From NCBI GenBank assembly GCA_964005815.1, contig CAXFSR010000017.1, positions 173,401 to 237,400 on the forward strand: a stretch of DNA of 64,000 bases, in the 5' to 3' direction. Under the pieces are notes generated by a model. It searched no databases and had not been told where the DNA came from. It worked only from the letters and a program-made list of their open reading frames with translations. This document shows, piece after piece, positions 7,149 through 44,640 of this stretch; the first letter of the stretch is position 1; every line of letters begins with the position of its first letter. Both the position numbers and the translations under genes were made by a program. Origin of the DNA: an uncultured Nitrospinaceae bacterium (GTDB lineage: Bacteria; UBA8248).

Positions 7149-7309
7149 AAAGGGATTCCTTATATTAAGAATTCTGTTTTTTTCATCAAAAACTAAACAA
7201 TGATTAAGATAAATTAACTTTTAATGACAAGCAAATACATTTACTGAGGATTTAGTGGTAAAATAGAGAAAATTTAGTTTAAATTTCTACATTTTGGGAG
7301 ATAAAGTCT

Positions 7310-22987: not shown

Positions 22988-24508
22988 ATGTCTAAATATG
23001 CAATGGCAATTGATTTAAGAGCATGTATTGGCTGTCATGCCTGTACTATAGCCTGTAAATCAGAACACGACATTCCAATAGGTACTTGGCGTTGTTGGGT
23101 GAAAGAGGTAGAGAAAGGCACATTCCCAAATACGAGACGAGAGTTTCTTCCTGTTCTCTGCAATCAATGCGATGACGCCCCTTGTCAAAATATTTGTCCA
23201 ACAAAAGCACTCTTCAGAAGGAATGATGGAATTGTAGATTTGGATCCAGAATGGTGCATAGGATGTAAATCATGTATAGCAGCATGTCCTTATGATCAAA
23301 TATTCATAGACCCAAATACAAGTACTGCCGAAAAATGTAATTTTTGTTCCAACCGACTGGAAGCAGATTTGGAACCTGCGTGTGTTGTTGTTTGTCCAAC
23401 AGAGTGTAGAGTCTTTGGTGATTTAGAAGACCCAGATGCTAAAATCAATAAATTATTAACACATGAACCACATAATGTAAGAAAACCTGAATACAACACT
23501 TCTCCAAATATTTATTATGTAAATGGAAGTCAACAACTTCTAGATCCAACAAAACCAATGCAATCTGGAATTTACAAACAAGGAGAAATGAGCGAAGAAT
23601 TGAAACAATCTGTTCCCGAATTTAAGAATGATCCTCAAGAAAGTCGAACAGTTTATGACACTTTCCATAATATTCCTTGGGACAAGAATATTATTACATA
23701 TTTAATGACTAAGGGTGCTAGTACAGGCTTACTAATTTTAAGTCTCTTTCTTTGGTGGGTTGGTTTCAAGAGTAGTTTATTCTCTTTCTGGATGCCTATA
23801 CTTAGTGGAGTTCTCCTAACTATCACAGGTTATGTACTTATTACGGATTTAAAAAAACCAGAACGTTTTTATTATATTTTACTTCGTTCAAATTGGAATA
23901 GTTGGATGGCATGGGGAACTTGGTTCATTACGTTAAAAGGAATATTTATTTTACTATGGTTACTAGGAGCAATGGCTGGAAATGATGGATTTTTGGACTT
24001 CATTCTTTGGCCTACTATCTTACTTTCTTTTCTTTCTTCTATTTATACTGGATTCTTCTTCGCCCAAGCTAGCGCTAGAGACCTCTGGAAAGGAAGTGAA
24101 AATACGATAGATATCGGAGTTTTATCGATTCTTAAAGGAGCATCAATTTTAGCTTTTTTCGTAATAATTTTTCCAGTCGCGGACAAAACTAACATACTGA
24201 ACACACTTGGAAACGTAATAACAGTATGTACCCTTCTTCATTTTTCAATTTTAATGTTCTCAATACTTTTACATAGATTCGGCTCTGTTGCACATGAGAG
24301 ATCCATCGAGTTAATACTTAAAGGACCTTTCAAAAAGGAATTTTGGAATGGGGCAATTATTGCCGGGTGTGCGGTTCCTATGTTTATTTTCTGGTGGATT
24401 GGATATAACTATTTTACTTTCTTAGTTGCTAGTACGCTTATAGTACTAGGTTCCTACTACTGGGATAAAATATGGGTACAAGCTGGGCAGAAAGTACCAT
24501 TGTCTTAA
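22988..24508 (+). CDS. fused four-cluster [4Fe-4S] ferredoxin (PsrB/NrfC-like) + 8-TM NrfD/PsrC-like quinone-interacting membrane subunit
   Basis: N-terminal 4 Cys motifs (CIGCHACTIAC, CNQCDDAPCQNICP, CIGCKSCIAACP, CNFCS...CVVVCP), then about 8 predicted TM helices in residues about 235-500. No signal or Tat motif. Confidence 0.8.
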   Translation: MSKYAMAIDLRACIGCHACTIACKSEHDIPIGTWRCWVKEVEKGTFPNTRREFLPVLCNQCDDAPCQNICPTKALFRRNDGIVDLDPEWCIGCKSCIAACPYDQIFIDPNTSTAEKCNFCSNRLEADLEPACVVVCPTECRVFGDLEDPDAKINKLLTHEPHNVRKPEYNTSPNIYYVNGSQQLLDPTKPMQSGIYKQGEMSEELKQSVPEFKNDPQESRTVYDTFHNIPWDKNIITYLMTKGASTGLLILSLFLWWVGFKSSLFSFWMPILSGVLLTITGYVLITDLKKPERFYYILLRSNWNSWMAWGTWFITLKGIFILLWLLGAMAGNDGFLDFILWPTILLSFLSSIYTGFFFAQASARDLWKGSENTIDIGVLSILKGASILAFFVIIFPVADKTNILNTLGNVITVCTLLHFSILMFSILLHRFGSVAHERSIELILKGPFKKEFWNGAIIAGCAVPMFIFWWIGYNYFTFLVASTLIVLGSYYWDKIWVQAGQKVPLS

Positions 24509-24524: not shown

Positions 24525-27398
24525 ATGGTTTCAAAACATTTACAATCTGGAGTTGGGGCACATAATATTTCTTCGTTGGGATATCCTGAACTTTTAGAAA
24601 CTTCGAAAACAACCTCAGATTCAGATAAAACACATACTGTAAAAAAGAATGGGAAATTAAGATCCTACCCACCACCTGAAGAATGGGACAACTGGACTGA
24701 GTTTGAAAGTGGAACTTGGCCCGAAAAAACACAAAGAAATTATTCTCTTATTCCTACTCTTTGCTTCAACTGTGAAGCAGGTTGTGGTCTTCTGGCTTAT
24801 GTTGATAAAGACGATATGAAAATCAGGAAAATAGAGGGAAACCCTCTTCATCCTGGTTCTAGAGGAAGAAACTGTGCAAAAGGATGGGTAACACTGAATC
24901 AAGTAAATGACCCAGATAGAATCCTTTATCCACTCAAGAGAGTCGGCAAAAGAGGAGAAGGAGAATGGGAAAGAGTAAGTTGGGACGAAGTACTAGATGA
25001 TCTTTCAGCAAGAATCAGAAAATCTATTGAAGAAGAAAGACGTAACGAAATTATATATCATGTGGGAAGACCTGGTGAAGATGGTTTTATGTTTAGAACT
25101 CTCGCAAGTTGGGGTGTCGATGGGCATAATAGTCATACAAATGTTTGTAGTTCCTCTGCAAGAATTGGCCAGTACCTTTGGAATGGTTCAGATCGTCCAT
25201 CACCAGATTTTTCCAACGCAGAAGCAATTCTTTTAATAAGCAGTCATTTAGATACAGGCCACTACTTTAACCCTTCAGCTCAGCGCATTATTGAAGCTCA
25301 ATTAAACGGTGCTAAAATCATTGTAATAGACCCGAGACTTTCAAATACTGCGGCTAAAGCAGACTACTGGCTTCCTGCGTATAGCGGAACAGAACCTGCA
25401 ATCTTACTTGCTATTGTTCGCTACTTGTTAGAAACCGGACAATTTGACGAAAAATTTGTTGAAGAATGGTTTAACTGGGCCGAATATTTGAGTTCTGTTC
25501 ATCCTCAAGATGAAATTACTTTTGACAATTTCATTGTTAGGCTAAAAGAAGAATATGCTGAATTCACTTTTGAATATGCATCTGAGGAAACAGGTGTTTC
25601 AATAGAACAAATAGCAGAAGTTGCTCAGGTGATTGCTAGAGCAGGTAGTCGACTATGTGTTCACGTATGGAGAGCAGCAGCTACAGGCAATTTGAATGGA
25701 TGGCAAGTTGCAAGATGCCTACATTTTATTCCATCTTTGACTGGCGCAATAGGTACTGTCGGAGGAACACATTTAGCAAGTTGGCATAAATTCGTTCCTT
25801 CTCATCCAAATCCTGCACCCGGCCCCAAAGACTGGAACGAATTACTTTACCCTACAGAATATCCACTAGCTCATTTTGAAATGAGTTTCTTAATGCCACA
25901 CCTGATGAAAGACAAAGGACATAAAATAGACACATATTTTACCCGTGTTTATAACCCTGTATGGACGAATCCAGACGGTTTTATGTGGGTAGATATGCTA
26001 AGAGATGAAAATAAAATCGGTTGTCACGTCGCACTTACTCCCACTTGGAGTGAGACTGCGTGGTTTGCTGATTACATCTTACCGATGGGAGTTGCTACAG
26101 AAAGACATGACAATCAGAGTCAAGAAACTCATCCAGCGAAATGGTTTGGATTCAGGCAACCTGTTCTCCGTGTCGCTAGAGAAAAACTAGGTGAAACTGT
26201 TGAAACGACTAGAGAAACAAACCCGGGTGAAGTGTGGGAAGAAAATGAATTTTTAATAGAACTTTCTTGGAGAATTGACCCTGATGGTTCATTAGGAATC
26301 AGAAAATATTTCGAAAGTCCATATAGAAATGGAGAGAAAATTACAGTTAACGAGTATTATCAATGGATGTTCGAAAATGGAGTACCTGGACTTCCAGAAG
26401 CGTCCGAAAAAGAGGGCCTTTCTCCATTAGAATATATGAGAAAATATGGAACTTTCACCGTGGAAGATAATGTCTATGAAGTACACATGAAAGAACTTCC
26501 CGAGGATGACCTTAACAGTGCAGATATTACTGAACTAGATGGAACTATTAATGATAATGGAAAAACTATTGGGAATATGAGTAAAGGAAAAGCTCGAATT
26601 GGCTTCAATACTCCATCAAAAAAATTAGAATTTTACAGCGCGACTATGACTGATTGGAACTGGCCAGAACATGCAATTCCTTCCTACAAAAAAACACATG
26701 TTTACTGGAGAGACATGGATAAGAGTGAAAATGAATTTGATTTACTACCTAATTATAGACTACCAACTTTGATACATACTAGATCTGCAGTGAAATGGTT
26801 ATACGAAATTACTCACAATAATCCTCTCTGGATACATACCGAAGATGCAAATCGTATGGGCATCAAAACAGACGACTTAGTCAAGGTAGAAACTGAAATA
26901 GGTTATTTCGTAACACGTTGCTGGGTAACAGAAGGTTTGAAGCCAGGAATAGTTGCAATGGCTCACCACCTAGGACGTTGGAGATTAAATGAAAATATCG
27001 GGGCACCTAAAATTGCTTCTGCTTTAGTTGAAATAGAAGAACAGGACAGTGAATTTACTATGAATCAAATTCACGGGGTTCAACCATTTAAAAGTGATGA
27101 CCCAGATACCGAAAGAATATGGTGGAAAGAAATAGGAGTAAATCAAAACTTAACTTTTCCTGTAAATCCTGATCCTATTAGTGGTATGCACTGTTGGCAT
27201 CAAAAAGTAAAATTAACCAAAGCGACTTCTTCAGAAAGTTATGGAGATATTAAAGTAGATACAGAAAAAAGTTTTGCACACTACAAAAAATGGCTAGAAA
27301 TGGCTAGACCTGCTCCAGGACCAGATGGTCTAAGAAGACCTCTCTGGTTTTTAAGACCAAATAAACCACAAGCAGATGCTTATTTGCTAGAGGAGTAA
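24525..27398 (+). CDS. molybdopterin oxidoreductase catalytic subunit, Psr/Phs/Ttr/Soe-like, no Tat signal
   Basis: 957 aa. CFNCEAGCG (Cx2Cx3C) FS0 motif, ILYPLKRVGKRGEGEWERVSWDEV block, MGD-binding regions. N-terminus MVSKHLQSGVGAHN lacks a twin-arginine. AAGGAGA RBS 8 nt upstream. Confidence 0.85.
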   Translation: MVSKHLQSGVGAHNISSLGYPELLETSKTTSDSDKTHTVKKNGKLRSYPPPEEWDNWTEFESGTWPEKTQRNYSLIPTLCFNCEAGCGLLAYVDKDDMKIRKIEGNPLHPGSRGRNCAKGWVTLNQVNDPDRILYPLKRVGKRGEGEWERVSWDEVLDDLSARIRKSIEEERRNEIIYHVGRPGEDGFMFRTLASWGVDGHNSHTNVCSSSARIGQYLWNGSDRPSPDFSNAEAILLISSHLDTGHYFNPSAQRIIEAQLNGAKIIVIDPRLSNTAAKADYWLPAYSGTEPAILLAIVRYLLETGQFDEKFVEEWFNWAEYLSSVHPQDEITFDNFIVRLKEEYAEFTFEYASEETGVSIEQIAEVAQVIARAGSRLCVHVWRAAATGNLNGWQVARCLHFIPSLTGAIGTVGGTHLASWHKFVPSHPNPAPGPKDWNELLYPTEYPLAHFEMSFLMPHLMKDKGHKIDTYFTRVYNPVWTNPDGFMWVDMLRDENKIGCHVALTPTWSETAWFADYILPMGVATERHDNQSQETHPAKWFGFRQPVLRVAREKLGETVETTRETNPGEVWEENEFLIELSWRIDPDGSLGIRKYFESPYRNGEKITVNEYYQWMFENGVPGLPEASEKEGLSPLEYMRKYGTFTVEDNVYEVHMKELPEDDLNSADITELDGTINDNGKTIGNMSKGKARIGFNTPSKKLEFYSATMTDWNWPEHAIPSYKKTHVYWRDMDKSENEFDLLPNYRLPTLIHTRSAVKWLYEITHNNPLWIHTEDANRMGIKTDDLVKVETEIGYFVTRCWVTEGLKPGIVAMAHHLGRWRLNENIGAPKIASALVEIEEQDSEFTMNQIHGVQPFKSDDPDTERIWWKEIGVNQNLTFPVNPDPISGMHCWHQKVKLTKATSSESYGDIKVDTEKSFAHYKKWLEMARPAPGPDGLRRPLWFLRPNKPQADAYLLEE

Positions 27399-32830: not shown

Positions 32831-33982
32831 TTATCTATAGAAAGGCAACCTTGGAAACTCAAAAAACTTTTTTATCTTATCAAATATGTGAATGCAGTTC
32901 AGAAAAGATTTAGTCGTCGGAGTTCCTTGCTTTTCAAATTTGGCTAATTCTTGGAATAGCTTCTTTTCTTTAGAACTTAACTTCCTTGGAGTAAGTATAG
33001 AAAAGACGACTATATGATCACCCTTAGAATTGCTTGTCAAAGATGGAAATCCTTGTTTTTTAATAACCGCGCTTTCTCCTGACTGAACTCCCTGTGGTAC
33101 TGTAATTTCACTTTCCCCATACAAAGTTTGTACAAGAATCTTTCCACCAAGCGCAGCCTGAGAAAAAGTCACATCTTCTCTGCTAAAAACATTATTTCCT
33201 TCTCTTTCTAATCTATCATGTTTTAATAGATTGACTATTACATGCAAATCTCCAGAAGGCCCTCCATTAATTCCACCTTCTCCCTTTTCACGTAATCTCA
33301 AACGTGATTCATGGTCAGCTCCTGGTGGAATTTTAACTTTCACAGAACATTCTTCTTGACGTTTTCCAGAACCCCTACATTCATCACAATGCTCTATAAT
33401 CTTATTTCCAGAACCGTCACATTCGGAACACTGAGAGCTAAAAGTTACGAACCCCTGCCTATATGCTACTTGACCACTTCCACCACAGGTTTCACAATTT
33501 AAAATAGATTCTGAATTTTTAGCTCCTGTACCACCGCAATATACACACTCTATTTCTCTTTCAAATTCGACATCATGTTCTGAACCCATAGCAGCTTCTT
33601 CGAATGTAAGATCTAACTGATATGCAAGATCTCTTCCTTTTACTCTTCCATCTCCTCTAGAACTTCGTCCAAATGCTCCGCCAAAAATGTCAGAAAAAAC
33701 ATCTCCAAAAGATGAGAAAATATCATCTACACTTGAGAAACCAGAAGAAAATCCACCAGAAAGTCCATCATGACCATATTGATCATAAATACCTCTTTTT
33801 TGAGTATCACTTAAAACTTGATAGGCTTCGGAAGCTTCTTTAAAAAGTTCTTCAGCTTTTGAATCTCCTGGATTTCTGTCTGGATGATACTGCATTGCTG
33901 TTGAGCGGTAAGCTTTTTTTATTTCCGACTCTGTTGCATTCCTGCTAATATTTAAAATTTCGTAATAATCCCTTTTTGACAC
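32831..33982 (-). CDS. dnaJ: chaperone DnaJ (type I, with CxxCxGxG zinc-finger repeats)
   Basis: J-domain with HPD (YHPDRNPG), G/F-rich linker, four CxxCxGxG repeats (CVYCGGTG, CETCGGSG, CSECDGSG, CDECRGSG), C-terminal domains. Confidence 0.9.
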   Translation of the reverse strand: MSKRDYYEILNISRNATESEIKKAYRSTAMQYHPDRNPGDSKAEELFKEASEAYQVLSDTQKRGIYDQYGHDGLSGGFSSGFSSVDDIFSSFGDVFSDIFGGAFGRSSRGDGRVKGRDLAYQLDLTFEEAAMGSEHDVEFEREIECVYCGGTGAKNSESILNCETCGGSGQVAYRQGFVTFSSQCSECDGSGNKIIEHCDECRGSGKRQEECSVKVKIPPGADHESRLRLREKGEGGINGGPSGDLHVIVNLLKHDRLEREGNNVFSREDVTFSQAALGGKILVQTLYGESEITVPQGVQSGESAVIKKQGFPSLTSNSKGDHIVVFSILTPRKLSSKEKKLFQELAKFEKQGTPTTKSFLNCIHIFDKIKKFFEFPRLPFYR

Positions 33983-34012
33983 TTTATATGTTCTCCCGAG
34001 TCAACCATACGT

Positions 34013-34759
34013 TTAAGTAGGTTGCTCATCTTTTTTTGATTCGATATATCTTCCGACTGCAACACGACTAGGACGGAGAATCTCATCGTTTAAAAAATAC
34101 CCTACTGAAAGTTCTTCTAAAATTTTTCCATCTAATTCTTTATCTGTTACATCGTCAGAACGTATCGCTTCATGTCTAACAGGATCGAAAATTTCCCCAA
34201 CAGATTGAATTGGTTTTACCCCTTGTGAGGATAATTCTTGAAAGAATCTACTCTCCACCATTCGAAATCCTTCAATAAGGGATTGTATACCTTCAACTTT
34301 TGTGTTGGGTTCATTTTTCCAACCATCCTGTACTGCATGATTAGCCCTAGATAAATCATCTCCAACACTCAACAAACTAGTAAACAGTTCTTTTTTTACT
34401 TGTTGAATTCTTCTTTCTAAATCCTTTTCTTGACGTTTTCTAAACTCCTTAGACTCTTTATTAACTCTTGCAATATGTTCTTGAAGTTTTTCTTCTGCTA
34501 TCAAAACTTTTTTCTCTAAAAGTTCAACATAACTTGGCACCAAAGATGGTGACTCATCTTTATTTTTTTCTTCTGTTGAATCTTCTTCTGTAGGATCTTC
34601 TTCTGATTTAAAACGTCTACGATCATTTACACGGGCTTTTTCCTCTTCGTTCTCAATTTCTTTTGAATTCTCATCCTCTTTGGTATCAGAAGAAAAAATA
34701 TTTTCTCCTAATGAGGATTTCTCATCATCGTTAGAATCAACCTTCTCTACCTGCATCAA
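34013..34759 (-). CDS. grpE: nucleotide exchange factor GrpE
   Basis: 248 aa. Acidic N-terminus, long coiled-coil (…RVNKESKEFRKRQEKDLERRIQQVKKELF…) and a C-terminal beta-domain typical of GrpE. Confidence 0.85.
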   Translation of the reverse strand: MMQVEKVDSNDDEKSSLGENIFSSDTKEDENSKEIENEEEKARVNDRRRFKSEEDPTEEDSTEEKNKDESPSLVPSYVELLEKKVLIAEEKLQEHIARVNKESKEFRKRQEKDLERRIQQVKKELFTSLLSVGDDLSRANHAVQDGWKNEPNTKVEGIQSLIEGFRMVESRFFQELSSQGVKPIQSVGEIFDPVRHEAIRSDDVTDKELDGKILEELSVGYFLNDEILRPSRVAVGRYIESKKDEQPT

Positions 34760-34847
34760 AAAACCTCCAAAAGTTAAAAACTTTACAACCTAAAAAACCT
34801 TTACGAATTTCACTGACTTAAAACAAAAGAACAATACTATGTTCTAA

Positions 34848-35252
34848 TTATTTCTCTCTTTTGAGTTTCATAAGCTTCGCTCCTATAGATGGTATAAGAG
34901 CATTCATGTCAGGAGTTGCATTTTCAATTTTTTGACGAAATTCCTCAAATGCATCACTACTTAAAACCTCTTCCATCTGCTCAAGTCTTTCTATTGCCAA
35001 ATGTAGTTTTTGACGTAATTCTATAATTACTTCAACTCCAGCCAAATTAATTCCCATATCTCTAGTAAGTGTTAGAATAATTTCTAACTTTTCTAAATCT
35101 TTCTCTTCATAAAGACGAGTTCTACCCTCACTTCGCATAGGTTCAATTAATCCCTCTCTTTCATACATTCTCAAGGTCTGGGGATGTATTTCGAACATTT
35201 CAGCAACAGTACTTATAGTATATTTTACTTGTTTCCTGCTCCTACGTACCAA
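34848..35252 (-). CDS. hspR: MerR-family heat-shock repressor HspR-like
   Basis: N-terminal MerR HTH (YTISTVAEMFEIHPQTLRMYEREGLIEP...R.Y) followed by a coiled-coil. Embedded between J-protein and grpE genes. Confidence 0.8.
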   Translation of the reverse strand: MVRRSRKQVKYTISTVAEMFEIHPQTLRMYEREGLIEPMRSEGRTRLYEEKDLEKLEIILTLTRDMGINLAGVEVIIELRQKLHLAIERLEQMEEVLSSDAFEEFRQKIENATPDMNALIPSIGAKLMKLKREK

Positions 35253-35265
35253 GACCTTATCCTCA

Positions 35266-36213
35266 TTAAGTTCGTGAAATATTCATGCCTTCTCTAGGAT
35301 CAATTGGATTCAATCTTTCAAATTCTCGAATTAAATCTTTACTTTTTTCGTCAATTCTTTCAGGAAGTTTTAAACTTACAGCTACAAAAAGATCTCCCTT
35401 ACCAGTTCCCTTCATTTGAGGTGCGCCTTTTCCATTTAGTCGCAACCTTTGTCCATTTTGAGTCCCAGGAGGAATTGTAACTTTCGTTACTCCTTCGAAA
35501 GTTTCTAATTCTACACGAGTACCTAAAGAAAGCTCACCTAGAGTCAGGGGAAGATCAATATATAAATTATCTCCTTTTCTTTCAATGTAAGGATGAGTAC
35601 TTACCTTTGTTAAAATATACAGGTCACCATTTTTCCCTCCTGTCTGAGAAGTTTCCCCTTTACCTGTTAACCTAATTCGAGAACCATTTGAAACACCAGC
35701 AGGTATTTTCACTTTAATTCTTTCTGTTGCCCTTCTGAGGACACCATTGTTAATAATATTTTTAGGAACTGTCACAACAGTTTCCAGACCACGTAAGGCA
35801 TCATCAAAACCAATCTCTATAGAATAATTTACATCTTCTCCCTTTGTGTTTACTGGAGAACCCCAGTTTGAGGAACGATAGGAAGTTCTTCCACGTTGTC
35901 CTCCAAAAAAACTACCAAAGATATCTCCTATACCTATGTCTTTTAAGATATCTTCCATATTTATTCCGCCTTCCCATGGATTACCTCCTGAAAATGCAGC
36001 GTGGCCCATCGTGTCATATTTACGTCTTTTTTCAACATCAGAGAGGACTGCGTAAGCTTCACTTATTTCCTTGAAACGCTCTTCTGCAGATTTGTTCCCG
36101 GGATTTACATCAGGATGATATTTTCTGGCAAGTTTTTTAAATGCTCTCTTCAATTGTTCAGAAGAAACATCTCTATTTACTCCTAACAGCTCATAATAAT
36201 CCCGTTTCGACAT
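35266..36213 (-). CDS. cbpA: J-domain co-chaperone without zinc finger (CbpA/DnaJ type II-like)
   Basis: J-domain with HPD (YHPDVNPG), G/F region, C-terminal substrate-binding domains. No CxxCxGxG repeats. 315 aa. Confidence 0.8.
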   Translation of the reverse strand: MSKRDYYELLGVNRDVSSEQLKRAFKKLARKYHPDVNPGNKSAEERFKEISEAYAVLSDVEKRRKYDTMGHAAFSGGNPWEGGINMEDILKDIGIGDIFGSFFGGQRGRTSYRSSNWGSPVNTKGEDVNYSIEIGFDDALRGLETVVTVPKNIINNGVLRRATERIKVKIPAGVSNGSRIRLTGKGETSQTGGKNGDLYILTKVSTHPYIERKGDNLYIDLPLTLGELSLGTRVELETFEGVTKVTIPPGTQNGQRLRLNGKGAPQMKGTGKGDLFVAVSLKLPERIDEKSKDLIREFERLNPIDPREGMNISRT

Positions 36214-36248
36214 ACGAATTCCCTGAAAGATAAAAAATTAGAATAAAA

Positions 36249-38174
36249 TTATTTGTCCTTTTTAACTTCTTCAAATTCTGCATCTACTACATCACCATCA
36301 TCACCACCTGTTTCATTTCCATTTTCTGTATTAGCAGATGGATTTTCAGAATCTGTATTTGCCTGTTTGCTAGCTTCTTCGTACATCGCCTGAGACAATT
36401 TATGTGATACAGTTTCTAAATTCGTTTTAGCAGAATCAATTTCTTCAATAGTTGCATCTTGATTTTCAAGAACTTTACGGACCTCTGCAATAGCATCTTC
36501 TATAGCTTTTTTATCTTCCTCTGAAACTTTATCATTGTTTTCACCCAACATCTTTTCTGTACTGTATGCGAGAGATTCTGCATTGTTTCTAGATTCCACG
36601 AGTTCTCTACGTTTTTTATCCTCACCAGCATTTTCTTCAGCATCTTTCACCATATTATTTATCTCTTCTTCAGAAATACCACTTGAACTCGTAATCGTAA
36701 TAGCTTGTTCCTTACCTGTACCTAAATCTTTTGCAGAAACATTAACAATCCCATTAGCATCAATGTCAAAGGTGACTTCTATTTGTGGCACTCCACGCGG
36801 AGCAGACGGAATATCTACAAGATGAAATTTTCCAAGACTACGATTATCAGCAGCCATTTCTCTCTCTCCTTGTAGAACATGCACCTCCACAGAAGTTTGA
36901 TTATCCGCAGCAGTAGAAAATGTTTCACTTTTTTTAACAGGAATTGTGGTGTTACGCTCAATAAGTTTCGTACAAACATTTCCTAAAGTCTCTATCCCTA
37001 GTGATAATGGAGTAACATCCAACAATAAAACATCCTTAACATCCCCTGCTAGAACACCACCTTGTACTGCCGCACCGACTGCTACAACTTCATCAGGATT
37101 CACACCTTTATGTGGTTCTTTAGTAAAGAATTTCTTTACTGTTTCCTGAACAAGAGGCATACGCGTAGAACCTCCAACTAAAACCACCTCATCTATATCT
37201 CCAGGTTGAAGATTTGCATCATTTAAAGATTGACGACAAGGAACAAGTGTTCTTTCTACTAATTCACCAGCAAGTTGTTCTAACTTAGAACGAGAAATTT
37301 TGATATTTAAATGTTTGGGTCCTGAGGAATCAGCTGTAATAAATGGAAGGTTAATATCAGTTTCCATTGAACTAGAAAGTTCAATCTTTGCTTTCTCAGA
37401 CTCTTCACGTAACCTCTGTAAAGCCATTGGATCAGTAGACAAATCAATACCCTGATCTTTTTTAAACTCCTCAACTAGCCAATCTATAATTTGTTGGTCA
37501 ATATTGTCACCACCTAGATGGGTATCTCCATTTGTCGCCTTAACTTCAACAACGTTATCTCCAACTTCGAGGATAGAAACATCGAAAGTTCCACCACCAA
37601 AATCATAAACAGCTATAGTTTGATCCTGCTTTTTGTCCAGACCATAGGCCAAAGCTGCCGCAGTAGGTTCATTAATTATACGCAGAACATTTAATCCAGC
37701 GATCTTTCCAGCATCTGTAGTAGCTTGTCTTTGACTATCATTAAAATATGCAGGAACTGTCACTACAGCATCACTAACTTCCTCTCCAAGATAGTCACTA
37801 GCTGCTTGTTTTAATTTTTGTAGAACACTAGAAGAAATTTCAGGTGGTGCGTAAACTTTACCATTTATCTTAAGCCTAGCATCACCATTCTCAGCTTTTA
37901 TAACTTCATAAGGCACCATCTTAACTTCTTCTGGAACCTCATCGAATCTTCTACCCATAAATCTCTTTACTGAATAAATAGTATTTGTAGGGTTGGTTAC
38001 TGCTTGCCTTTTAGCAACAACTCCAACAAGTTTCTCACCTTCTGGAGTAAAACCAACTATACTAGGTGTAGTACGATTCCCTTCCTGATTTGGTATGACC
38101 GTAGGTTCACCGGCTTCCATAATAGAAACTACAGAGTTTGTGGTTCCTAAATCAATACCAATAACTTTTCCCAT
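36249..38174 (-). CDS. dnaK: molecular chaperone DnaK (Hsp70)
   Basis: [28 protein letters not shown] Hsp70 signatures. 641 aa. AGGAGG RBS 7 nt upstream. Confidence 0.95.
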
Positions 38175-38458: not shown

Positions 38459-38827
38459 ATGGTAACTTTATTTGATGAAACCAAGTCACCTACAAAAAGC
38501 TCCGGGATTACCGTAACAGAAAATGCATCTAAAAAAGTGAGTGAACTTCTTAAAGCAGAAGGAAAAGAAAATCACGGACTTCGTTTATCAGTGACCGCAG
38601 GGGGCTGTTCAGGCTATAACTACGGATTATTTTTTGACGAAAAAGCAAACCCTGATGACAAAGTTTACGAATCAAACGGCATCAATATATTCATAGACAC
38701 TCAGAGCGATTCTCTTCTATCTGGCACAGAAATAGATTTCGTTGACAGCCTAGAAGGCTCAGGATTTAAAATCAACAATCCTAATGCAACGGGCACTTGC
38801 GGCTGCGGAAAATCTTTCACAGCCTAA
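38459..38827 (+). CDS. iron-sulfur cluster insertion protein, HesB/IscA/ErpA family
   Basis: 122 aa. Conserved Cys triad in GGCSGYNY ... GTCGCGKSF (C-x(n)-C-G-C). Confidence 0.8.
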   Translation: MVTLFDETKSPTKSSGITVTENASKKVSELLKAEGKENHGLRLSVTAGGCSGYNYGLFFDEKANPDDKVYESNGINIFIDTQSDSLLSGTEIDFVDSLEGSGFKINNPNATGTCGCGKSFTA

Positions 38828-38865
38828 ACAAAAAATCAACTAGCTAATTACCATCTAATTGAAGA

Positions 38866-38899
38866 AAACGGATTTTAATAAAATACAATCCGTTTTTTT
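38866..38899 (+). terminator. rho-independent terminator after the iscA-like gene
   Basis: Perfect 9-bp stem AAACGGATT / AATCCGTTT with a 12-nt loop followed by a T7 run (38893-38899). Confidence 0.6.
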
Positions 38900-38982
38900 G
38901 CCAATCTATATAAAATCGTTAAAAGAATGGTAAAATAATAAAATACACCCTTTTATTTAGCCTACTTAAAGAGGAATTTTTA

Positions 38983-39774
38983 ATGCAACGTTTTAAAAAT
39001 AAAGTTTGCATCATAAGTGGTGGAGCTAGTGGAATTGGCGCTAAAACCGCTGAAATGTTTGCAGAAGAAGGTGGAAAGGTTTTAATAGGAGATGTTGATG
39101 AAAAAAATGGAAAGAATCAAACAGAAAAAATTACCGAAAAATACGGTAATGGAACTGCTATTTTTTTCTATCTAGATGTTTCCAATCCTAACGATTGCGA
39201 AAAAGCTGTAAAGAAAGCTGTTCATGAATTTGGTTGCGTAAACTACCTACTAAATAGCGCAATTAAAATGGCTCCAGGAATGCTAAAAGAACTTTCTCTC
39301 GAAAATTGGAATACAATGATCACAATTGGATTAACTGGGACATTTCTCATGACTCAAGCAACTGGAAGGTGGATGATTGACAACAACATCCCTGGGTCTA
39401 TAGTCACAATGTCGTCTATTGGTGGACAACAACCATACGGAATGTCAGGTGCTTACTCAACTGTAAAAGCCGCTGTCATCATGCTTGCAGAACACTTTGG
39501 GATAGAATGGGCCAGCCACAAAATCAGGGTTAATGCCATATGCCCTGGTCACACAGAAACACCTTTAACATCTTACTTAAAAGACTCGGACATAAAAAAA
39601 CAGAGAAGTGAAATCACACCACTGCTGAGGGTCGCACAGCCAATAGATATTGCCAACGGTATTTTATTCTTATTCTCAGAAGAAGCAGATTACATAACTG
39701 CTACAACCCTAGAAATTGACGGCGGACTTAGCAAAACTGTAATGAATCATCTACCTGGTCGAAAGTGGAAATAA
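38983..39774 (+). CDS. SDR-family oxidoreductase
   Basis: KVCIISGGASGIGAKTA (TGxxxGIG) NAD-binding motif, S..Y...K catalytic triad region (SGAYSTVKAA). 263 aa. Confidence 0.75.
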   Translation: MQRFKNKVCIISGGASGIGAKTAEMFAEEGGKVLIGDVDEKNGKNQTEKITEKYGNGTAIFFYLDVSNPNDCEKAVKKAVHEFGCVNYLLNSAIKMAPGMLKELSLENWNTMITIGLTGTFLMTQATGRWMIDNNIPGSIVTMSSIGGQQPYGMSGAYSTVKAAVIMLAEHFGIEWASHKIRVNAICPGHTETPLTSYLKDSDIKKQRSEITPLLRVAQPIDIANGILFLFSEEADYITATTLEIDGGLSKTVMNHLPGRKWK

Positions 39775-39806
39775 AAGCTTTGAAAAAAATCAAAGAGAAC
39801 AAAAAA

Positions 39807-41186
39807 ATGAAAATACTATTAATTTCATGTTATGAACTAGGGAATCAACCTATACCAACAGCTAGCTTACATGCTTTCTTAAAGAGTTACTCCTACAACC
39901 CCCAAGTTTTAGATTTATCTACACAAAAGATCAATCATGAAGATATTCAAAATTGCGATTTTATTGCTCTTAGCACTCCTATGCATACTGCCCTATCAAT
40001 TGCAGTAGAAGCGACAAAAATAATTCGCAAGTTCAACAAAGAGTGTCATATTTGCTACTATGGAGATTATGCAGATCTTAACTCTAATTACCTTCTGAAA
40101 AATATAGCTGATAGTTGCTTAAGCGGCGAAACACAAAAATCAATACTCGAAATAATAAAATCTATTCAGTCTTCCTCTAACACAATTACATACAAACAAA
40201 ACAGAGAAAAAAAGAAAATTCGACTTATAGAAAAACCAGATTTCAAAATACCAGAAAGATCCCTACTTCCTGATCTATCCAATTACAATAAATTAATTAA
40301 TGATCAAAACCATGTTACAACAGCTGCAGTCGAAACTAGCAGAGGCTGCAAACATCAATGTTTACATTGCCCTATCACACCTATTTTCAAAGGTCGTTTT
40401 TTTGTTGTGCCAAAAGAAATAGTTTTATCCGACATAAAAAACTTGTATTTACAAGGCGCTAGACATATCACATTTACCGACCCTGATTTTCTAAACGGAC
40501 CCAAACATTCGCTTAAAATTCTTAGAGAAATGAACAATTTATTCCCTGAAATGACTTTTGACTTTACAGCAAAAATTGAGCATCTAATCCAACAAAAAGA
40601 CATTTTTACCGAACTTCAAGAATTAGGTTGCCTATTTATCGTTACAGCTTTGGAATCTTTAAATAACAAAATCTTAAAAAAATTAATTAAAGGACATTCG
40701 AAAAAAGATTTCTTGGAAGTTTTAAAAATCGCAAGAGCGAACGGGATTTCTATTCGACCTTCATTAATTGCATTTACTCCTTGGACAACTCCCAAAGATT
40801 ACATAGAATTACTTGATTTTATTGAGAAAAATGAATTGATTGATGAAATAGATCCAATTCAGATGTCAATAAGATTACTCATACCACCTGAGTCGAGTCT
40901 GCTTCAATTACAAGACCTAAAGAAATACATAGTGCGCTTCGAACCAGACAAATTTTCTTATATATGGAAGCATCCAAATCCAAAAATGGAACTTTTAAAT
41001 TTGAAAATTTCGAGGATTGTAGAAAATCATGCAAATCTTAACAAAGAAGCTTTAGAAACATTTTTCGCTCTTAAGAAAGAATTTTCGAAAATCTTTCCTG
41101 AAATCATAAAAGAGGAAAACGTTACTATCAGAACAAAAAAAATTACCGCGAAACCTCCAAAACTTACCGAATCATGGTTCTGTTGA
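39807..41186 (+). CDS. B12-binding domain radical SAM protein
   Basis: N-terminal MKILLISCY...IALSTPMH B12-binding-like Rossmann region, then SRGCKHQCLHC (Cx3Cx2C) radical-SAM cluster motif. The ORF frame is open from 39765, which would overlap the SDR gene by 10 nt. Start at 39807 (MKILLI) chosen by analogy with the family. Confidence 0.7.
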   Translation: MKILLISCYELGNQPIPTASLHAFLKSYSYNPQVLDLSTQKINHEDIQNCDFIALSTPMHTALSIAVEATKIIRKFNKECHICYYGDYADLNSNYLLKNIADSCLSGETQKSILEIIKSIQSSSNTITYKQNREKKKIRLIEKPDFKIPERSLLPDLSNYNKLINDQNHVTTAAVETSRGCKHQCLHCPITPIFKGRFFVVPKEIVLSDIKNLYLQGARHITFTDPDFLNGPKHSLKILREMNNLFPEMTFDFTAKIEHLIQQKDIFTELQELGCLFIVTALESLNNKILKKLIKGHSKKDFLEVLKIARANGISIRPSLIAFTPWTTPKDYIELLDFIEKNELIDEIDPIQMSIRLLIPPESSLLQLQDLKKYIVRFEPDKFSYIWKHPNPKMELLNLKISRIVENHANLNKEALETFFALKKEFSKIFPEIIKEENVTIRTKKITAKPPKLTESWFC

Positions 41187-41218
41187 GCAGAGCCAACTGA
41201 GAGTCAGTTGACTCTAAA

Positions 41219-41932
41219 TTAAAGATTCAATACCGCAACTGCTCGTATTGGAGAACCAGAACCTCCACGAATTTTTAGAGGAAGACCAATATAAAGAAAT
41301 TCCTTACCTGCCACATCTTCAATATTACAAAGATTTTCTGTGTTATGACATTGCAATTCTCTACATAACACATGACAAGGGAAAGTCATTTCTCCTGTAT
41401 TAATTCCAGCATCGATACTAGGGGCATCCTGACCAATATTTACGATCCCGCATTCTCTATATAGAAAATTGCCAGCATCGTATGAAAGACCAGGATAATC
41501 AGTATTATAGCTATCCTCGGGATAAGTTCGTCTAAAATGTCCACCAGTAAAAAGAAAGGTACCCGCATTGGGTGGTGTCAAATCTTGGCTACTAAGCTCA
41601 TCTTCAAGAAGCTTTAAAGAAATCTCCTCTTTAGGTTCCACTTTACCAGTAAAGTCGATAGCAATACCTCTTGTAATAAATTTTTTAAGGTTAGATTGAT
41701 CTATAGTGGGGGCAGTTTCTCTTTCGTCAATATGGCTAACTGCATCAACATGGGTTGGACCATGATCACACATATGCAACATCATTGCTGCGTAAGTAAT
41801 ATCTTTAGGTCTAATAGGAGCATTCCTTGCGTCTTCATGTGTAGCAATAAACTCTATTTCCGTGGGAGGATGCCCAGGAAACCTTGGAGCACCCGTATAT
41901 ATATCCTGACTAAGATTAACAATATCATACAT
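41219..41932 (-). CDS. putative cyclase family protein (kynurenine formamidase-like, PF04199-type)
   Basis: HMCDHGPTHVDAVSHID matches the cyclase-family HxGTHxDxPxH zinc motif. 237 aa. Confidence 0.75.
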   Translation of the reverse strand: MYDIVNLSQDIYTGAPRFPGHPPTEIEFIATHEDARNAPIRPKDITYAAMMLHMCDHGPTHVDAVSHIDERETAPTIDQSNLKKFITRGIAIDFTGKVEPKEEISLKLLEDELSSQDLTPPNAGTFLFTGGHFRRTYPEDSYNTDYPGLSYDAGNFLYRECGIVNIGQDAPSIDAGINTGEMTFPCHVLCRELQCHNTENLCNIEDVAGKEFLYIGLPLKIRGGSGSPIRAVAVLNL

Positions 41933-41982
41933 AATAACACCCCTCTAAAAATTCAAGAAAAAACTATTCCGAGTCAGTAAAC

Positions 41983-43227
41983 TTAGCCAATTCCACCTAC
42001 TGTGACACCATTTGGCTCGGGCGCTTCAAGTGCTGGCAATACATGAGTCATAAATGCATCTAACTCAGATATTACTTCTTTAGATGGAATCTGTGCATAG
42101 TGCCAGATCAAAGTGATATATTCAGCGGGAACTTTATCATAAGAATGGAGGAATTGCTCCTTCAACTGTTCTACGGTACCACCGAGAAAAATACCACTAT
42201 CTTTCATGTTCTCTACCCAATCTATATTTGATGTGTCATCTGGGAACTGGGGAAAGAAAGGAACATAAAAATTTTCATAGATATCTTGATCATACTCTTT
42301 AAGCTTACGATCGTAATCGGCTTCATTTTCAGCTACATGAATCCACCTGCAAACACATTGCCTTTCTCCATGCGCAAAGTTATGTCCATGCTTTTGTGCT
42401 TCTTCTACATAAACATATGACATTTCTTCCATTTTTTCCAATTTAGTGAAATACACAGGCCGAAAACCATGCTTAGCTGCAAATTTGATAGAATCATTAC
42501 TAGCACTAACTGCCTGAAAAACTGGAGGATGTGGAGACTGGTATGGTTTAGGAACAACACTGACTTTATGTACTCTTCCATCTTCACCTACTTCTCCGTG
42601 CGTTCCTGCATCTCGTGCACTTTTCCAAGCTGGATACTCTATACCGTCTTTATAGGGGTAAGGAATTTTATAATAGTTGCCATCTATCTGTGAAGATTCT
42701 TCAGTCCAAAATTTCAAAAGCATCTCTGCACGCTCTTCGAAAATTTCTCGATTTTTCACATCATCATCTCCGCCAAGATCAGAACTAACGGTTGCAACCG
42801 AATCTGTGAATTGGCCCAAAACATTTGCCCATCTGGACTGATACCCTCGTGCCATACCAACAAACATTTTCCCTTTAGTTATATGATCCAGAATTGCGGT
42901 TTCTTCTGCAACCCTAACTGGATCCTGTGTAGCCATAACATAGCCTAGAGCACCAACACGCGCATTTTTTACGTGACTAGCCCACCAAGCATTTAAAACA
43001 CCTGGATTAGGTCCTACCTCATACCCTTCTGAATGAAAATGATGTTCTATAGTACTAACCCCCCAAACACCCATTTCATCTGCAGCCTTGACTATATCAA
43101 GCCATTCGTGGAGAACATGATGGTAAAGATCTGTGTCACAAGCAAGAGGCCTTTTTTCTTCACGCTCAGCACGATCCTTTGATGGAAGCATAGGGTATAA
43201 CTGAACTATGACTTTAGGTTTTGCCAT
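41983..43227 (-). CDS. LLM-class (luciferase-like) flavin-dependent monooxygenase/oxidoreductase
   Basis: 414 aa TIM-barrel LLM pattern (…WGVSTIEHHF…, …ALGYVMATQDP…, …FVGMARGY…). Confidence 0.8.
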   Translation of the reverse strand: MAKPKVIVQLYPMLPSKDRAEREEKRPLACDTDLYHHVLHEWLDIVKAADEMGVWGVSTIEHHFHSEGYEVGPNPGVLNAWWASHVKNARVGALGYVMATQDPVRVAEETAILDHITKGKMFVGMARGYQSRWANVLGQFTDSVATVSSDLGGDDDVKNREIFEERAEMLLKFWTEESSQIDGNYYKIPYPYKDGIEYPAWKSARDAGTHGEVGEDGRVHKVSVVPKPYQSPHPPVFQAVSASNDSIKFAAKHGFRPVYFTKLEKMEEMSYVYVEEAQKHGHNFAHGERQCVCRWIHVAENEADYDRKLKEYDQDIYENFYVPFFPQFPDDTSNIDWVENMKDSGIFLGGTVEQLKEQFLHSYDKVPAEYITLIWHYAQIPSKEVISELDAFMTHVLPALEAPEPNGVTVGGIG

Positions 43228-43270
43228 TTTCTACTCCTTTATTAAAAAATGAATACTTCCATTAAGAAAA

Positions 43271-43792
43271 TTATGCCACATTCTTATTTCCTTTAGATCT
43301 CCAGTTACTTATTCCGAGATCTAATTTTGACAAAAATTTGGATACAACAAGCTTTTCTTCATCTGTAACATCTGACATGAGATTCGCTATAGATAAAAAA
43401 TAATCAGGGAAAATATTTTCCAGAAGGTCCTCCCCTTTCTTAGTAATCTTTACATTTGTCCTTCTTTTATCTTCATCCAAATGTTCTCTCTTAACAAATC
43501 CATCACGCTCGAGACCATCAACTAGGCCGGTCATGGTTGCTCTAGTAACTCCAGCACTCTCGGCCAAATCTGAAGGTGCGAATCCTTTATCTTTCCTTCT
43601 TAGGATTAATAGAACTACAAATCTCCCTTGAGATATTCCATAAGAGATTAAATAATCATTGAAGATATTTAAAAGATCACTGCCGGATCTTAAAAATTGA
43701 TAGAAAAGAAGCATAGATGATGGTTCTAAACTAGAATATACTTCTAGTGGCCTAAAATCCTCTCTTGTTGGAAGGTCTTTCATACAAAACAT
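43271..43792 (-). CDS. MarR-family transcriptional regulator
   Basis: Winged-helix region APSDLAESAGVTRATMTGLVDGLERDGFVKR. 173 aa (the start may be the internal Met MKDLPT). Confidence 0.75.
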   Translation of the reverse strand: MFCMKDLPTREDFRPLEVYSSLEPSSMLLFYQFLRSGSDLLNIFNDYLISYGISQGRFVVLLILRRKDKGFAPSDLAESAGVTRATMTGLVDGLERDGFVKREHLDEDKRRTNVKITKKGEDLLENIFPDYFLSIANLMSDVTDEEKLVVSKFLSKLDLGISNWRSKGNKNVA

Positions 43793-43929: not shown

Positions 43930-44640
43930 ATGCGTTCGGGCAATGCAACACAACTAAATCGGCAAGATTCTATATCACTTCAGGCAGCAGCGTTCATGCA
44001 ACGTGTTTATGGATGGATGACACTTGGGCTAATTGTAACTGGGTTTAGTGCTTTCTATATAGCTTCAAGTCAAAGCGCAATTAATTTTATTTTTGGTAGC
44101 TCTATGTCTATATTACTAATTTTTGCCGTACAACTCGGCATAGTTTTTGCTATCAAACCTGCTATGAGAAGCGGTGGCTGGCAAATTGGACTACTTCTAT
44201 TTGTTGTTTTCAGCGCCTCCTTGGGAGTAACTGTTTCTAGTCTTTTACTGCGGTATACATTTACATCGGTTTCACAAGCTTTCTTTGTTACTGCAGGTGC
44301 TTTTGGAGCTATGACAATTTTTGCTTTTGTCACAAAAAAAGACTTATCTGGATGGCAAAATTTTCTTTACGTAGGTCTTTTTGGAATTATTATAGCGATG
44401 ATTGTTAATATCTTTTTGCAAAGCAGTGCTCTTCATTTCGCCATAAGTGTAATAGGAGTTTTAGTTTTTGCAGGTCTTACTGCATATGATACTCAAAAGA
44501 TGAAAGAATACGCATACTCACAAGATACAAACAATGAAACCGGCAGAAGAGCGTCAGTAATGGCAGCTCTAGAACTTTATCTTGATTTCATAAATATGTT
44601 TATTTTTCTTACACATCTTTTAGGAAGTTCTAGAGATTAG
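43930..44640 (+). CDS. Bax-inhibitor-1/YccA family inner-membrane protein
   Basis: 236 aa, seven predicted TM helices, characteristic BI-1 C-terminal region. Confidence 0.8.
   Translation: MRSGNATQLNRQDSISLQAAAFMQRVYGWMTLGLIVTGFSAFYIASSQSAINFIFGSSMSILLIFAVQLGIVFAIKPAMRSGGWQIGLLLFVVFSASLGVTVSSLLLRYTFTSVSQAFFVTAGAFGAMTIFAFVTKKDLSGWQNFLYVGLFGIIIAMIVNIFLQSSALHFAISVIGVLVFAGLTAYDTQKMKEYAYSQDTNNETGRRASVMAALELYLDFINMFIFLTHLLGSSRD

Follow-up and report, generated by a model that had tools for sequence, protein, structure and literature searches.

A radical SAM gene of an uncultured Nitrospinaceae bacterium with a probable selenocysteine tail, conserved beside an iron-sulfur carrier gene, and the unrelated genes around it

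A stretch of 64,000 nucleotides from an uncultured Nitrospinaceae bacterium (GenBank assembly GCA_964005815.1, contig CAXFSR010000017.1, positions 173,401 to 237,400 of the forward strand; hereafter the window, with positions counted from its first letter) raises the question of whether five adjacent genes at 38983-43792 act together, and of what the radical S-adenosylmethionine (SAM) enzyme among them (rSAM) does. An earlier reading made from the sequence alone (the sequence-only reading) had seen in them a small accessory island, perhaps acquired horizontally, in which a short-chain dehydrogenase/reductase (SDR) and a B12-binding-domain rSAM face a cyclase, a luciferase-like flavin monooxygenase (LLM) and a MarR regulator. 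Its five open reading frames (ORFs) and their families were borne out, as the ORF coordinates match and Pfam returns adh_short_C2/adh_short, Radical_SAM, Cyclase, Bac_luciferase and MarR. Using Pfam, NCBIfam and Rfam profile scans, tblastn, Foldseek and RNA folding, we arrive at another view of the locus, where the rSAM frame very probably continues through a TGA as a selenoprotein, its conserved neighbour is an iron-sulfur (Fe-S) carrier gene, and the remaining four genes appear to be two unrelated inserts.

The rSAM product, with its ORF ended at the TGA, passes the NCBIfam profile NF040546, "CUAEP/CCAEP-tail radical SAM (seleno)protein", with 554.4 bits against an equivalog cut-off of 500 (E 1.9e-166), and the match spans profile positions 1-457 of 468, breaking off precisely at the TGA. 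The codons 3' of it are GCA GAG CCA ACT GAG AGT CAG TTG ACT CTA AAT TAA, and read-through with selenocysteine (Sec, U) gives the tail ...TESWFC-U-AEPTESQLTLN, which matches the Cys-form homologues; TGT TGA GCA GAG CCA at 41181-41195 thereby spells the C-U-A-E-P motif. The features of the gene are the following:

39807..41222, + strand: putative CUAEP-tail rSAM selenoprotein gene; ATG at 39807, Sec codon at 41184-41186, TAA at 41220-41222, 471 codons.
39765-41186, + strand: rSAM ORF as first called, with a GTG start and its end at the TGA; Radical_SAM PF04055, 56 bits.
40347..40370, + strand: CX3CX2C motif C181-K-H-Q-C185-L-H-C188, read from the sequence as the ligands of the SAM-cleaving [4Fe-4S] cluster.
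41184..41186, + strand: in-frame UGA (U460), right after the invariant C459; position of the Sec/Cys codon alternation.
41200..41215, + strand: SECIS-like hairpin AGAGUC-AGUU-GACUCU, 13 nt past the UGA, within the last codons of the rSAM gene.

The gene had been taken to end at 41186; with the TGA as a Sec codon it would run to 41222 and overlap the stop of the cyclase gene. Its start is most likely the ATG at 39807, since both the NCBIfam profile and the relatives' tblastn matches begin there. The GTG-start ORF overlaps the SDR gene by 10 nt and the ATG leaves a gap of 32 nt, in agreement with the earlier description of frames overlapping or lying within 33 nt.

The tail is a property of the whole family. 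In a database survey of the 120 best homologues, 45 stop at "...WFC" and 72 run on as "...WFCCAEPTxxQ...", so that 117/120 fit the motif. The codon itself could be compared at 77 homologous genomic loci from many phyla, 56 of which have TGA and 21 TGC or TGT, and the frame past it is conserved as AEPTxxQ(L/F) in TGA and Cys loci alike. Among 121 family members, the C/U position of the tail is occupied in 121/121, and the Cys residues of the cluster motif are likewise invariant (121/121); the window rSAM retains 106/123 family-conserved positions and all conserved Cys. Within its own clade, the TGA is kept in 4/4 genomes (the window and the loci L001, L002 and L081, the last from GCA_036231405.1), the rSAMs of which are 70-86% identical.

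In bacteria, the selenocysteine insertion sequence (SECIS) takes the form of a small stem-loop within the coding region, placed a few nucleotides downstream of the UGA and having G and U in its loop. Such a hairpin is present at the TGA loci, with a 5' arm that ends at an invariant C 19 nt past the UGA, a loop of AGUU or AGUUN and a stem of 6-7 bp, and in the window it forms one of the two helices in the minimum-free-energy (MFE) fold of the region. When 57 TGA sequences, 21 Cys-codon loci and shuffles were compared, at least 6 contiguous bp at the fixed position were found in 74% of the TGA loci, 5% of the Cys-codon loci and 0.9% of the shuffles (stem, TGA vs Cys loci: Mann-Whitney p=1.4e-9). 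Covariation was scored on 40 sequences with a 5-nt loop against 500 shuffles. The cells changed on both sides numbered 53 as against 21 in shuffles (0/500 shuffles reaching the observed value), and the covariation score was 0.53 vs 0.27 (0/500). Paired cells amounted to 87.9% vs 74.2% (0/500), a figure that is inflated by the best-stem criterion with which the 40-sequence subset was picked, which does not affect the double-change count. All slid stem registers stayed at or below 54% paired. The L081 variant, GAAAGUC-AGUU-GACUUUC, carries a compensatory G-C to A-U change, made up of a synonymous GAG->GAA in one arm and CUA->UUC (Leu->Phe) in the other; as this Leu->Phe exchange keeps the stem, RNA structure partly dictates the last residues of the protein.

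The hairpin resembles the SECIS of the E. coli fdhF type in its small size, its fixed spacing of 13 nt downstream of the UGA, its location within the coding region, the conserved G and U of its apical loop and the compensatory changes that maintain its stem. It differs from that type in its stem of only 6-7 bp, its AGUU(N) loop and the lack of an evident bulged U, and also in its place within the last 12 codons, where the TxxQ(L/F) peptide doubles as RNA structure. This comparative definition goes beyond the published findings that we located.

Two other hairpins were considered. The hairpin CAACUGA-GAG-UCAGUUG, which is the MFE structure if folding starts at the UGA, was rejected as its position is neither conserved nor covarying across loci. 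A hairpin holding the UGA in a triloop, UGGUUCUGU-UGA-GCAGAGCCA, folded in the window, but across loci only the third position of the Ala codon was biased, and this hairpin is not established. The bias concerns the Ala codon after the Sec/Cys codon (window 41187-41189), which is GCG or GCA in 53/57 TGA vs 11/21 Cys loci (Fisher p=1.5e-4); either an influence of context on how UGA is decoded or the base pair that closes the UGA-triloop helix may lie behind it. The third position of the Pro codon has no such TGA-vs-Cys bias.

A scan of the window for other in-frame TGA codons gave ordinary gene-end overlaps and nothing credible as recoding. Five relatives (L089, L004, L011, L009 and L014), however, carry at the same locus a second gene with an in-frame TGA, an ArsC-family (seleno)protein gene convergent on the rSAM gene, which reaches 120 bits with NF041106 (cut-off 85) and has a U-x-x-C motif, HRSG-U-KTC. 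Gene callers start it past the TGA, giving 86 aa in place of 116. Its positions are:

L089:9474-9821, - strand: ArsC-family selenoprotein gene.
L004:11434-11778: the same.
L011:11430-11777: the same.
L009:2565-2909: the same.
L014:8098-8436: the same.

Metagenome-assembled genomes (MAGs) labelled Nitrospinota, the source of L014 included, have 48-54 selenoprotein genes each (PMC13326102). Both the second TGA gene in relatives and these numbers support Sec decoding in the lineage. Taken together, the sequence comparisons make it very probable that the rSAM gene product is a selenoprotein, and we infer that Sec is indeed inserted in the source organism.

NCBIfam already contains the family under this name and with its Sec/Cys tail, the closest MAG homologue bears the NF040546 name in its NCBI annotation, and the window gene is a further member of a family whose function is uncharacterised. 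NF040546 was called uncharacterised in a preprint by Haft in which the CU motif is described as rare and linked to a proposed heavy-metal contact (10.1101/2022.07.06.499078), and the family is not listed in a 2026 review of prokaryotic selenoproteins.

What accompanies such a gene across phyla was examined in the best 80 of at least 589 GTDB species genomes that encode an NF040546-family relative, with loci taken from species-representative genomes. Unbiased clustering of the neighbouring ORFs finds an IscA/HesB or Nfu-type carrier within 6 kb of the rSAM gene in 44/80 loci; IscA/Nfu or YggX lies within 6 kb in 63/80, and on the same strand within 700 nt in 58/80. The other recurrent partners, with YggX counted by itself, are:

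ATP-grasp of the L-amino-acid-ligase type: 32 of 80 loci.
YggX, Fe(II) trafficking: 20 of 80 loci.
DUF169: 16 of 80 loci.
Formyltransferase-like: 15 of 80 loci.
ATG22-like major facilitator superfamily (MFS) transporter: 7 of 80 loci.

The IscA gene is directly upstream of the rSAM gene in L004, L011, L014, L089 and L090. A search of the rest of the window for ATP-grasp, DUF169, YggX and Nfu genes found none, and the IscA/ErpA-like gene is the sole partner present. The sequence-only reading had named this gene correctly, together with the YccA-like gene on the other flank (Fe-S_biosyn and Bax1-I Pfam matches), and had made it the border of the island, whereas it belongs to the class of partners that the rSAM family usually has. 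From this gene linkage, the rSAM is likely to be functionally tied to the Fe-S carrier, and the strong linkage, seen across phyla, with genes of Fe-S carriers and Fe trafficking goes beyond the published findings that we located.

Two side observations concern these neighbours. In L090 an Rrf2-family (IscR-like) regulator gene (6973-7398, + strand) stands directly upstream of IscA-rSAM, which hints at control by Fe-S status. The ATP-grasp, DUF169 and ATG22-like MFS neighbours recall small amino-acid or dipeptide natural-product clusters (e.g., L006 11852-13120, L012, L015, L024, L029).

The remaining features of the gene block are as follows:

38459..38827, + strand: A-type iron-sulfur carrier gene (IscA/ErpA-like); PF01521 (Fe-S_biosyn) 83 bits, ErpA equivalog 120 bits against a cut-off of 117.
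38862..38901, + strand: terminator-like hairpin with a T-run, directly after the iscA-like gene; fold -12.8 kcal/mol.
38983..39774, + strand: classical SDR oxidoreductase gene; adh_short_C2/adh_short, PF13561 193 bits.
41219..41932, - strand: cyclase/arylformamidase-superfamily hydrolase gene; PF04199 73 bits; last gene of the trio.
41983..43227, - strand: LLM gene; Bac_luciferase PF00296 75 bits.
43271..43792, - strand: MarR regulator gene; PF01047 47.5 bits; first gene of the trio, divergent from yccA.
43930-44640: YccA-like gene; Bax1-I Pfam match.

The SDR reaches no NCBIfam equivalog cut-off, and the LLM reaches no NCBIfam family, being part of a tightly conserved family. The cyclase had been called kynurenine-formamidase-like; it attains 40 bits with the arylformamidase equivalog KynB (TIGR03035; cut-off 223), so it is not KynB, and its place in the PF04199 superfamily holds.

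Gene order in related genomes was compared with that of the window, with these results:

Window, L001, L002, L081: DnaJ-DnaK-IscA-SDR-rSAM-cyclase-LLM-MarR-YccA-M16-RibF.
L004, L011, L089: same order without SDR, and with the ArsC-family selenoprotein gene between rSAM and cyclase.
L090 (Nitrospinota): ClpB / Rrf2-IscA-rSAM / MFS / YccA, without cyclase, LLM and MarR.
L009 (Tectomicrobia): IscA-rSAM-ArsC-like...LLM-YccA-M16-RibF.

IscA-rSAM is thus the constant backbone between the chaperone genes (dnaK) and yccA in Nitrospinota. The sequence-only reading had itself stated that universal synteny in the lineage would speak for core metabolism, and this is largely what is seen, as the whole block is syntenic in the window, L001, L002 and L081 and, without the SDR, in L004, L011 and L089. 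As a five-gene accessory island the block does not hold together; that some of its parts are variable is true (the SDR is confined to one clade and the trio is absent from L090). With the window proteins as tblastn queries, it is only in Nitrospinota-type loci that SDR, cyclase, LLM and MarR are seen beside the rSAM gene. The window, L001, L002 and L081 have the SDR gene and L004, L011, L014, L089 and L090 lack it, and SDR homologues of 60-75% identity in Alpha- and Gammaproteobacteria, Planctomycetes and others stand in unrelated contexts; as a partner of the rSAM family the SDR was therefore rejected. LLM homologues (60-77% identical, across phyla) have variable neighbours, without cyclase or rSAM, so that the idea of LLM and cyclase recurring together beyond this lineage was rejected as well; the cyclase is syntenic only in the Nitrospinota lineage and is absent from L090. 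The SDR gene was inserted in the window clade, and the same clade lost the ArsC-like gene, with the result that the stop codons of the convergent rSAM and cyclase genes now overlap. Comparing gene orders in this way, we consider it quite likely that the SDR and the cyclase-LLM-MarR trio are two independent inserts on a conserved backbone, and this dissection of the block goes beyond the published findings that we located.

Within the trio, the marR-LLM and LLM-cyclase gaps of 43 nt and 50 nt suggest one transcription unit, and a promoter-like site lies at 43910-43881, ahead of the MarR gene. Most likely, the trio acts independently, as a MarR-controlled flavin monooxygenase and a metal-dependent amidohydrolase on some small molecule.

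Composition was judged against 59 genes of the window, with a mean GC of 35.0% (sd 2.7), where the SDR gene has 38.8%, rSAM 32.3%, cyclase 38.5%, LLM 40.8% and MarR 34.9%. The cyclase and LLM genes had been described as GC-richer than the neighbouring rSAM gene (about 30%), at about 45-48% in sampled 60-mers; the direction is right and the size was overstated. Their excess lies in codon positions 1 and 2, not in the third (GC3), with an LLM value of 0.47, and for the LLM this position pattern reflects protein composition, although the tetranucleotide z of that gene is 2.65. In relative synonymous codon usage (RSCU), rSAM (z 1.2), cyclase (-0.3), LLM (0.8) and MarR (-0.7) are not outliers. Only the SDR and IscA genes deviate in both GC3 and RSCU, which does not fit a compositional island: SDR has a GC3 of 0.30 (z 2.2) and an RSCU z of 3.6, in agreement with recent insertion, and the strongest outlier is IscA, with a GC3 of 0.33 (mean 0.24, z 3.3) and an RSCU distance z of 3.9. 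The codon bias of IscA may stem from expression level, although the gene is vertically syntenic. As for the borders of a horizontal island, the window has no tRNA, and no integrase or transposase ORF was found between 38 and 45 kb. It was also observed that in Nitrospinota-type genomes IscA-rSAM is always divergent from a heat-shock block (MerR/HspR-like, DnaJ, DnaK, with or without ClpB and GrpE), which in the window lies at 32831-38174 (- strand) and is seen in L081, L089 and L090.

What kind of radical SAM enzyme stands on this backbone? The sequence-only reading had labelled it a B12-binding-domain enzyme and had proposed to ask by profile whether it is a class B methylase. By profile it belongs to none of these families: in the rSAM product all class B methylase models are far below cut-off, at 15-56 bits vs cut-offs of mostly 360-650 (PhpK 56/600, QCMT 51/360, HpnR 50/650, C-methyltransferase of ribosomally synthesised and post-translationally modified peptides (RiPP) 44/282, Trp 2-C-methyltransferase 15/500), and the B12-binding domain PF02310 was not detected in it at E<=0.01; precomputed annotation places PF02310 in many rSAM homologues. 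The AlphaFold2 model, built from the ORF ended at the TGA, has a predicted local distance difference test (pLDDT) score of 88, with 68-80 in the tail, and a predicted TM-score (pTM) of 0.89, and the predicted fold is a Rossmann-like N-domain followed by a radical SAM core. Foldseek matches it to the class B enzymes MgmA/QCMT, OxsB, TsrM, TokK and CysS (E 1e-15 to 1e-10, TM 0.56-0.68), which share the two-domain architecture and differ in sequence (identity 13-15%), and the cobalamin-independent AprD4 and MiaB match equally well (MiaB TM 0.63), again with 13-15% identity. The earlier label of B12-dependent methylase is an architectural resemblance, not family membership.

The best-scoring characterised family, and the second-best model after NF040546, is ArsL (NF040542), an enzyme of arsinothricin biosynthesis, with 303.2 bits over residues 17-413, under its cut-off of 450. 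To our knowledge, ArsL, to which the NF040546 family is closely related, is the only radical SAM enzyme with the canonical motif that makes an aminocarboxypropyl species. It has the layout of the window enzyme, with a Rossmann-like N-domain, the canonical cluster motif and a short C-terminal tail rich in Cys; the differences are that the NF040546 family adjoins Fe-S carriers instead of ars operons and is far more widespread. ArsL splits SAM to methylthioadenosine (MTA) and a 3-amino-3-carboxypropyl (ACP) species and puts ACP on As(III), in reaction mixtures with no added cobalamin; its C-terminal RCCLKC is the arsenite-binding site, required for product and not a cluster ligand, and the enzyme without the tail keeps its Fe/S content (10.1101/2024.02.01.577332). 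Each of the three Cys in the ArsL tail binds As, and an organometallic intermediate with an Fe-C(gamma) bond was proposed (10.64898/2026.04.29.721666).

The account that we lean towards, on balance and as a whole, joins these lines. The backbone would consist of an A-type Fe-S carrier gene and the gene of a Sec-containing rSAM, the UGA at 41184-41186 being read as Sec under the direction of the AGUU-loop hairpin 13 nt downstream. By homology to ArsL, SAM would be cleaved reductively at the CX3CX2C [4Fe-4S] cluster, and a flexible Cys-Sec dyad would swing into the active site, where it may hold a soft acceptor atom for the SAM fragment or be the acceptor itself, while the neighbouring IscA/ErpA-type carrier would supply or rebuild the cluster of the enzyme. 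The SDR would be a clade-specific insertion, and marR-LLM-cyclase a separate, regulator-headed minus-strand unit that converges by chance. We infer the ArsL-like chemistry and the roles of the tail and the carrier, and the ArsL-like use of the tail, which is drawn by analogy, is put forward tentatively.

Several observations weigh against this account. Rfam, scanned at the gathering threshold over the whole window and permissively over 41100-41300, returned no relevant family, the permissive matches being chance miRNA or lncRNA hits (E about 8-10). No selA, selB, selD or tRNA-Sec was found in the 64-kb window (tRNA/tmRNA scans, Pfam on 20 further ORFs), so that Sec decoding in the source organism rests on comparative evidence. 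The window-clade rSAM is a long branch, with a median identity of 44% to the other members vs 56% among those, and its composition is shifted (K, N and I up; A, G and R down), a shift that fits a genome of 35% GC. On the side of the chemistry, the C-U-AEP tail offers two ligands, one of them Se, against the three Cys of RCCLKC, and no ars genes (arsM, or arsQ of the arsQML cluster) are nearby, the neighbours being IscA, SDR, cyclase, LLM and MarR; across the 80 loci, no cluster of methyltransferase genes is enriched. The family also has further conserved Cys, namely C8 (98%), C80 (90%), C83 (90%) and C275 (100%), lacking in ArsL as reported, which might form an auxiliary cluster; for ArsL, only six conserved Cys were reported (10.64898/2026.04.29.721666). 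Finally, the terminator-like hairpin after iscA makes co-transcription of iscA and rSAM uncertain in this lineage. It was missed by the consensus terminator scan, as its loop of 12 nt is above the 8-nt limit of that scan, and a hairpin with a T-run, of unrelated sequence, occupies the same place in L001, L002, L081, L004, L011 and L014.

A different role for the tail may be imagined, and it is possible, though unlikely, that the Cys-Sec pair is a selenenylsulfide redox arm in an enzyme of ordinary 5'-deoxyadenosyl chemistry, donating a hydrogen atom or electrons by which the reaction is completed or an intermediate resolved. Redox sites are where Sec is typically found, and mammalian thioredoxin reductase, with its Gly-Cys-Sec-Gly (GCUG) end, likewise carries an adjacent Cys-Sec pair on a C-terminal extension. 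The vicinal C-U or C-C ends lie in a moderately confident, probably mobile tail (the pLDDT of 68-80 given above), the NF040546 family is found largely in aerobic lineages, and the UxxC thioredoxin-fold selenoprotein (NF041106) adjoining the rSAM gene in relatives could re-reduce the arm. However, that neighbour is present in only 5 of about 90 loci and in none of the window clade, the tail of ArsL serves to bind substrate and not for redox, and the linkage to Fe-S carriers would be left unaccounted for. The likeness to thioredoxin reductase is an analogy only, as the fold and the WFCUAEP context (12 residues from the end) are unrelated and there is no flavin/disulfide centre.

Rather unlikely in our estimate is also the reading in which the tail Cys/Sec, together with C8, C80, C83 and perhaps C275, ligates an auxiliary Fe-S cluster that turnover uses up or damages, like those of MiaB, RimO or LipA, and that is rebuilt by IscA, Nfu or YggX. 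For LipA, it is established that a sacrificial cluster is rebuilt with the help of the carrier NfuA, and this reading would account for the extra Cys, conserved in 90-100% of members, as well as for the Fe-S carrier or Fe-trafficking gene beside rSAM in 63 of the 80 loci; weak sequence matches to MiaB/RimO models and to the RimO structure, and the fold match to MiaB, point the same way. It is at odds with the unchanged Fe/S content of tail-less ArsL, with the lack of a TRAM or methylthiotransferase domain and with MiaB-family scores far under their cut-offs. In the model, C80 starts and C83 lies within a beta strand at the sheet edge opposite C8, so that a joint site appears uncertain.

It is very improbable that the five genes, as the sequence-only reading had it, were gained horizontally and together tailor a lipid or secondary metabolite with a class B rSAM. 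They are adjacent and conserved together in four clade genomes, the rSAM fold is like that of cobalamin-dependent enzymes (TM 0.56-0.68), the codon usage of the SDR is atypical and one relative (L090) lacks the trio. Against this stand the failure of the class B models and of PF02310, AprD4 and MiaB in the same fold group, and ArsL reconstituted without added cobalamin. Outside the lineage the other four genes are unlinked to rSAM and the SDR and LLM families occur in unrelated contexts, rSAM, cyclase and MarR have typical codon usage, and the SDR and the trio vary independently. That the TGA is a real stop, with the protein ending at ...WFC and the downstream similarity and hairpin being remnants or a terminator, is hardly credible: it would agree with the window's lack of Sec machinery and with a hairpin at the transcript 3' end between convergent genes, but in 56 loci the reading frame past the TGA is conserved as protein and agrees with the Cys forms, the hairpin lacks a T-run and its covariation, at a constant spacing from the TGA, is confined to TGA loci, the clade's Leu->Phe exchange compensates a synonymous change to hold the stem, and the C/U position is occupied in every one of the 121 members.

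Some features elsewhere in the window are recorded here for completeness. At 9498-11780, 22988-24508 and 24525-27398 (all on the + strand) lie two molybdopterin oxidoreductase genes, neither with an in-frame TGA, one of which (957 aa, with an Fe4S4 domain) follows a gene fusing a 4Fe-4S dicluster part and an NrfD-type membrane subunit. A CrtC-like (hydroxyneurosporene synthase/lipocalin) gene at 12718-13851 (- strand) adjoins a MacB/FtsX-type permease gene at 13848-16427, and a 454-aa ORF at 3202-4566 (- strand) has no Pfam match at E<=1e-6. The GC skew profile of the window tracks gene orientation and is uninformative on replication or islands.

Returning to the Sec-tailed enzyme, gene callers cut the rSAM at its TGA, as the 45 best homologues ending in "...WFC" show, so that a Sec probably at the business end of the enzyme is hidden in most records of a broad family, with its at least 589 species genomes spread over Nitrospinota, Nitrospirota, Acidobacteriota, Chloroflexota, Planctomycetota, Gemmatimonadota and others. 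The five-gene "island" resolves into a conserved backbone and two unrelated inserts, the SECIS hairpin constrains the last residues of the protein, and the Sec/Cys alternation, the family hairpin and the IscA/Nfu/YggX linkage are handles for experiment. To hypothesize further, and with more reserve than for the tail mechanism itself, the rSAM may be a widespread second case of ArsL-type chemistry, in which ACP or another SAM fragment would be transferred to Se, S or a metal(loid) held on the C-U dyad, the carriers would keep its cluster supplied and the amino acid so formed would, in many phyla, be taken up for processing by an ATP-grasp ligase. If this is true, ArsL-type radical SAM chemistry would extend to a type of carbon-heteroatom bond that has not been described so far.

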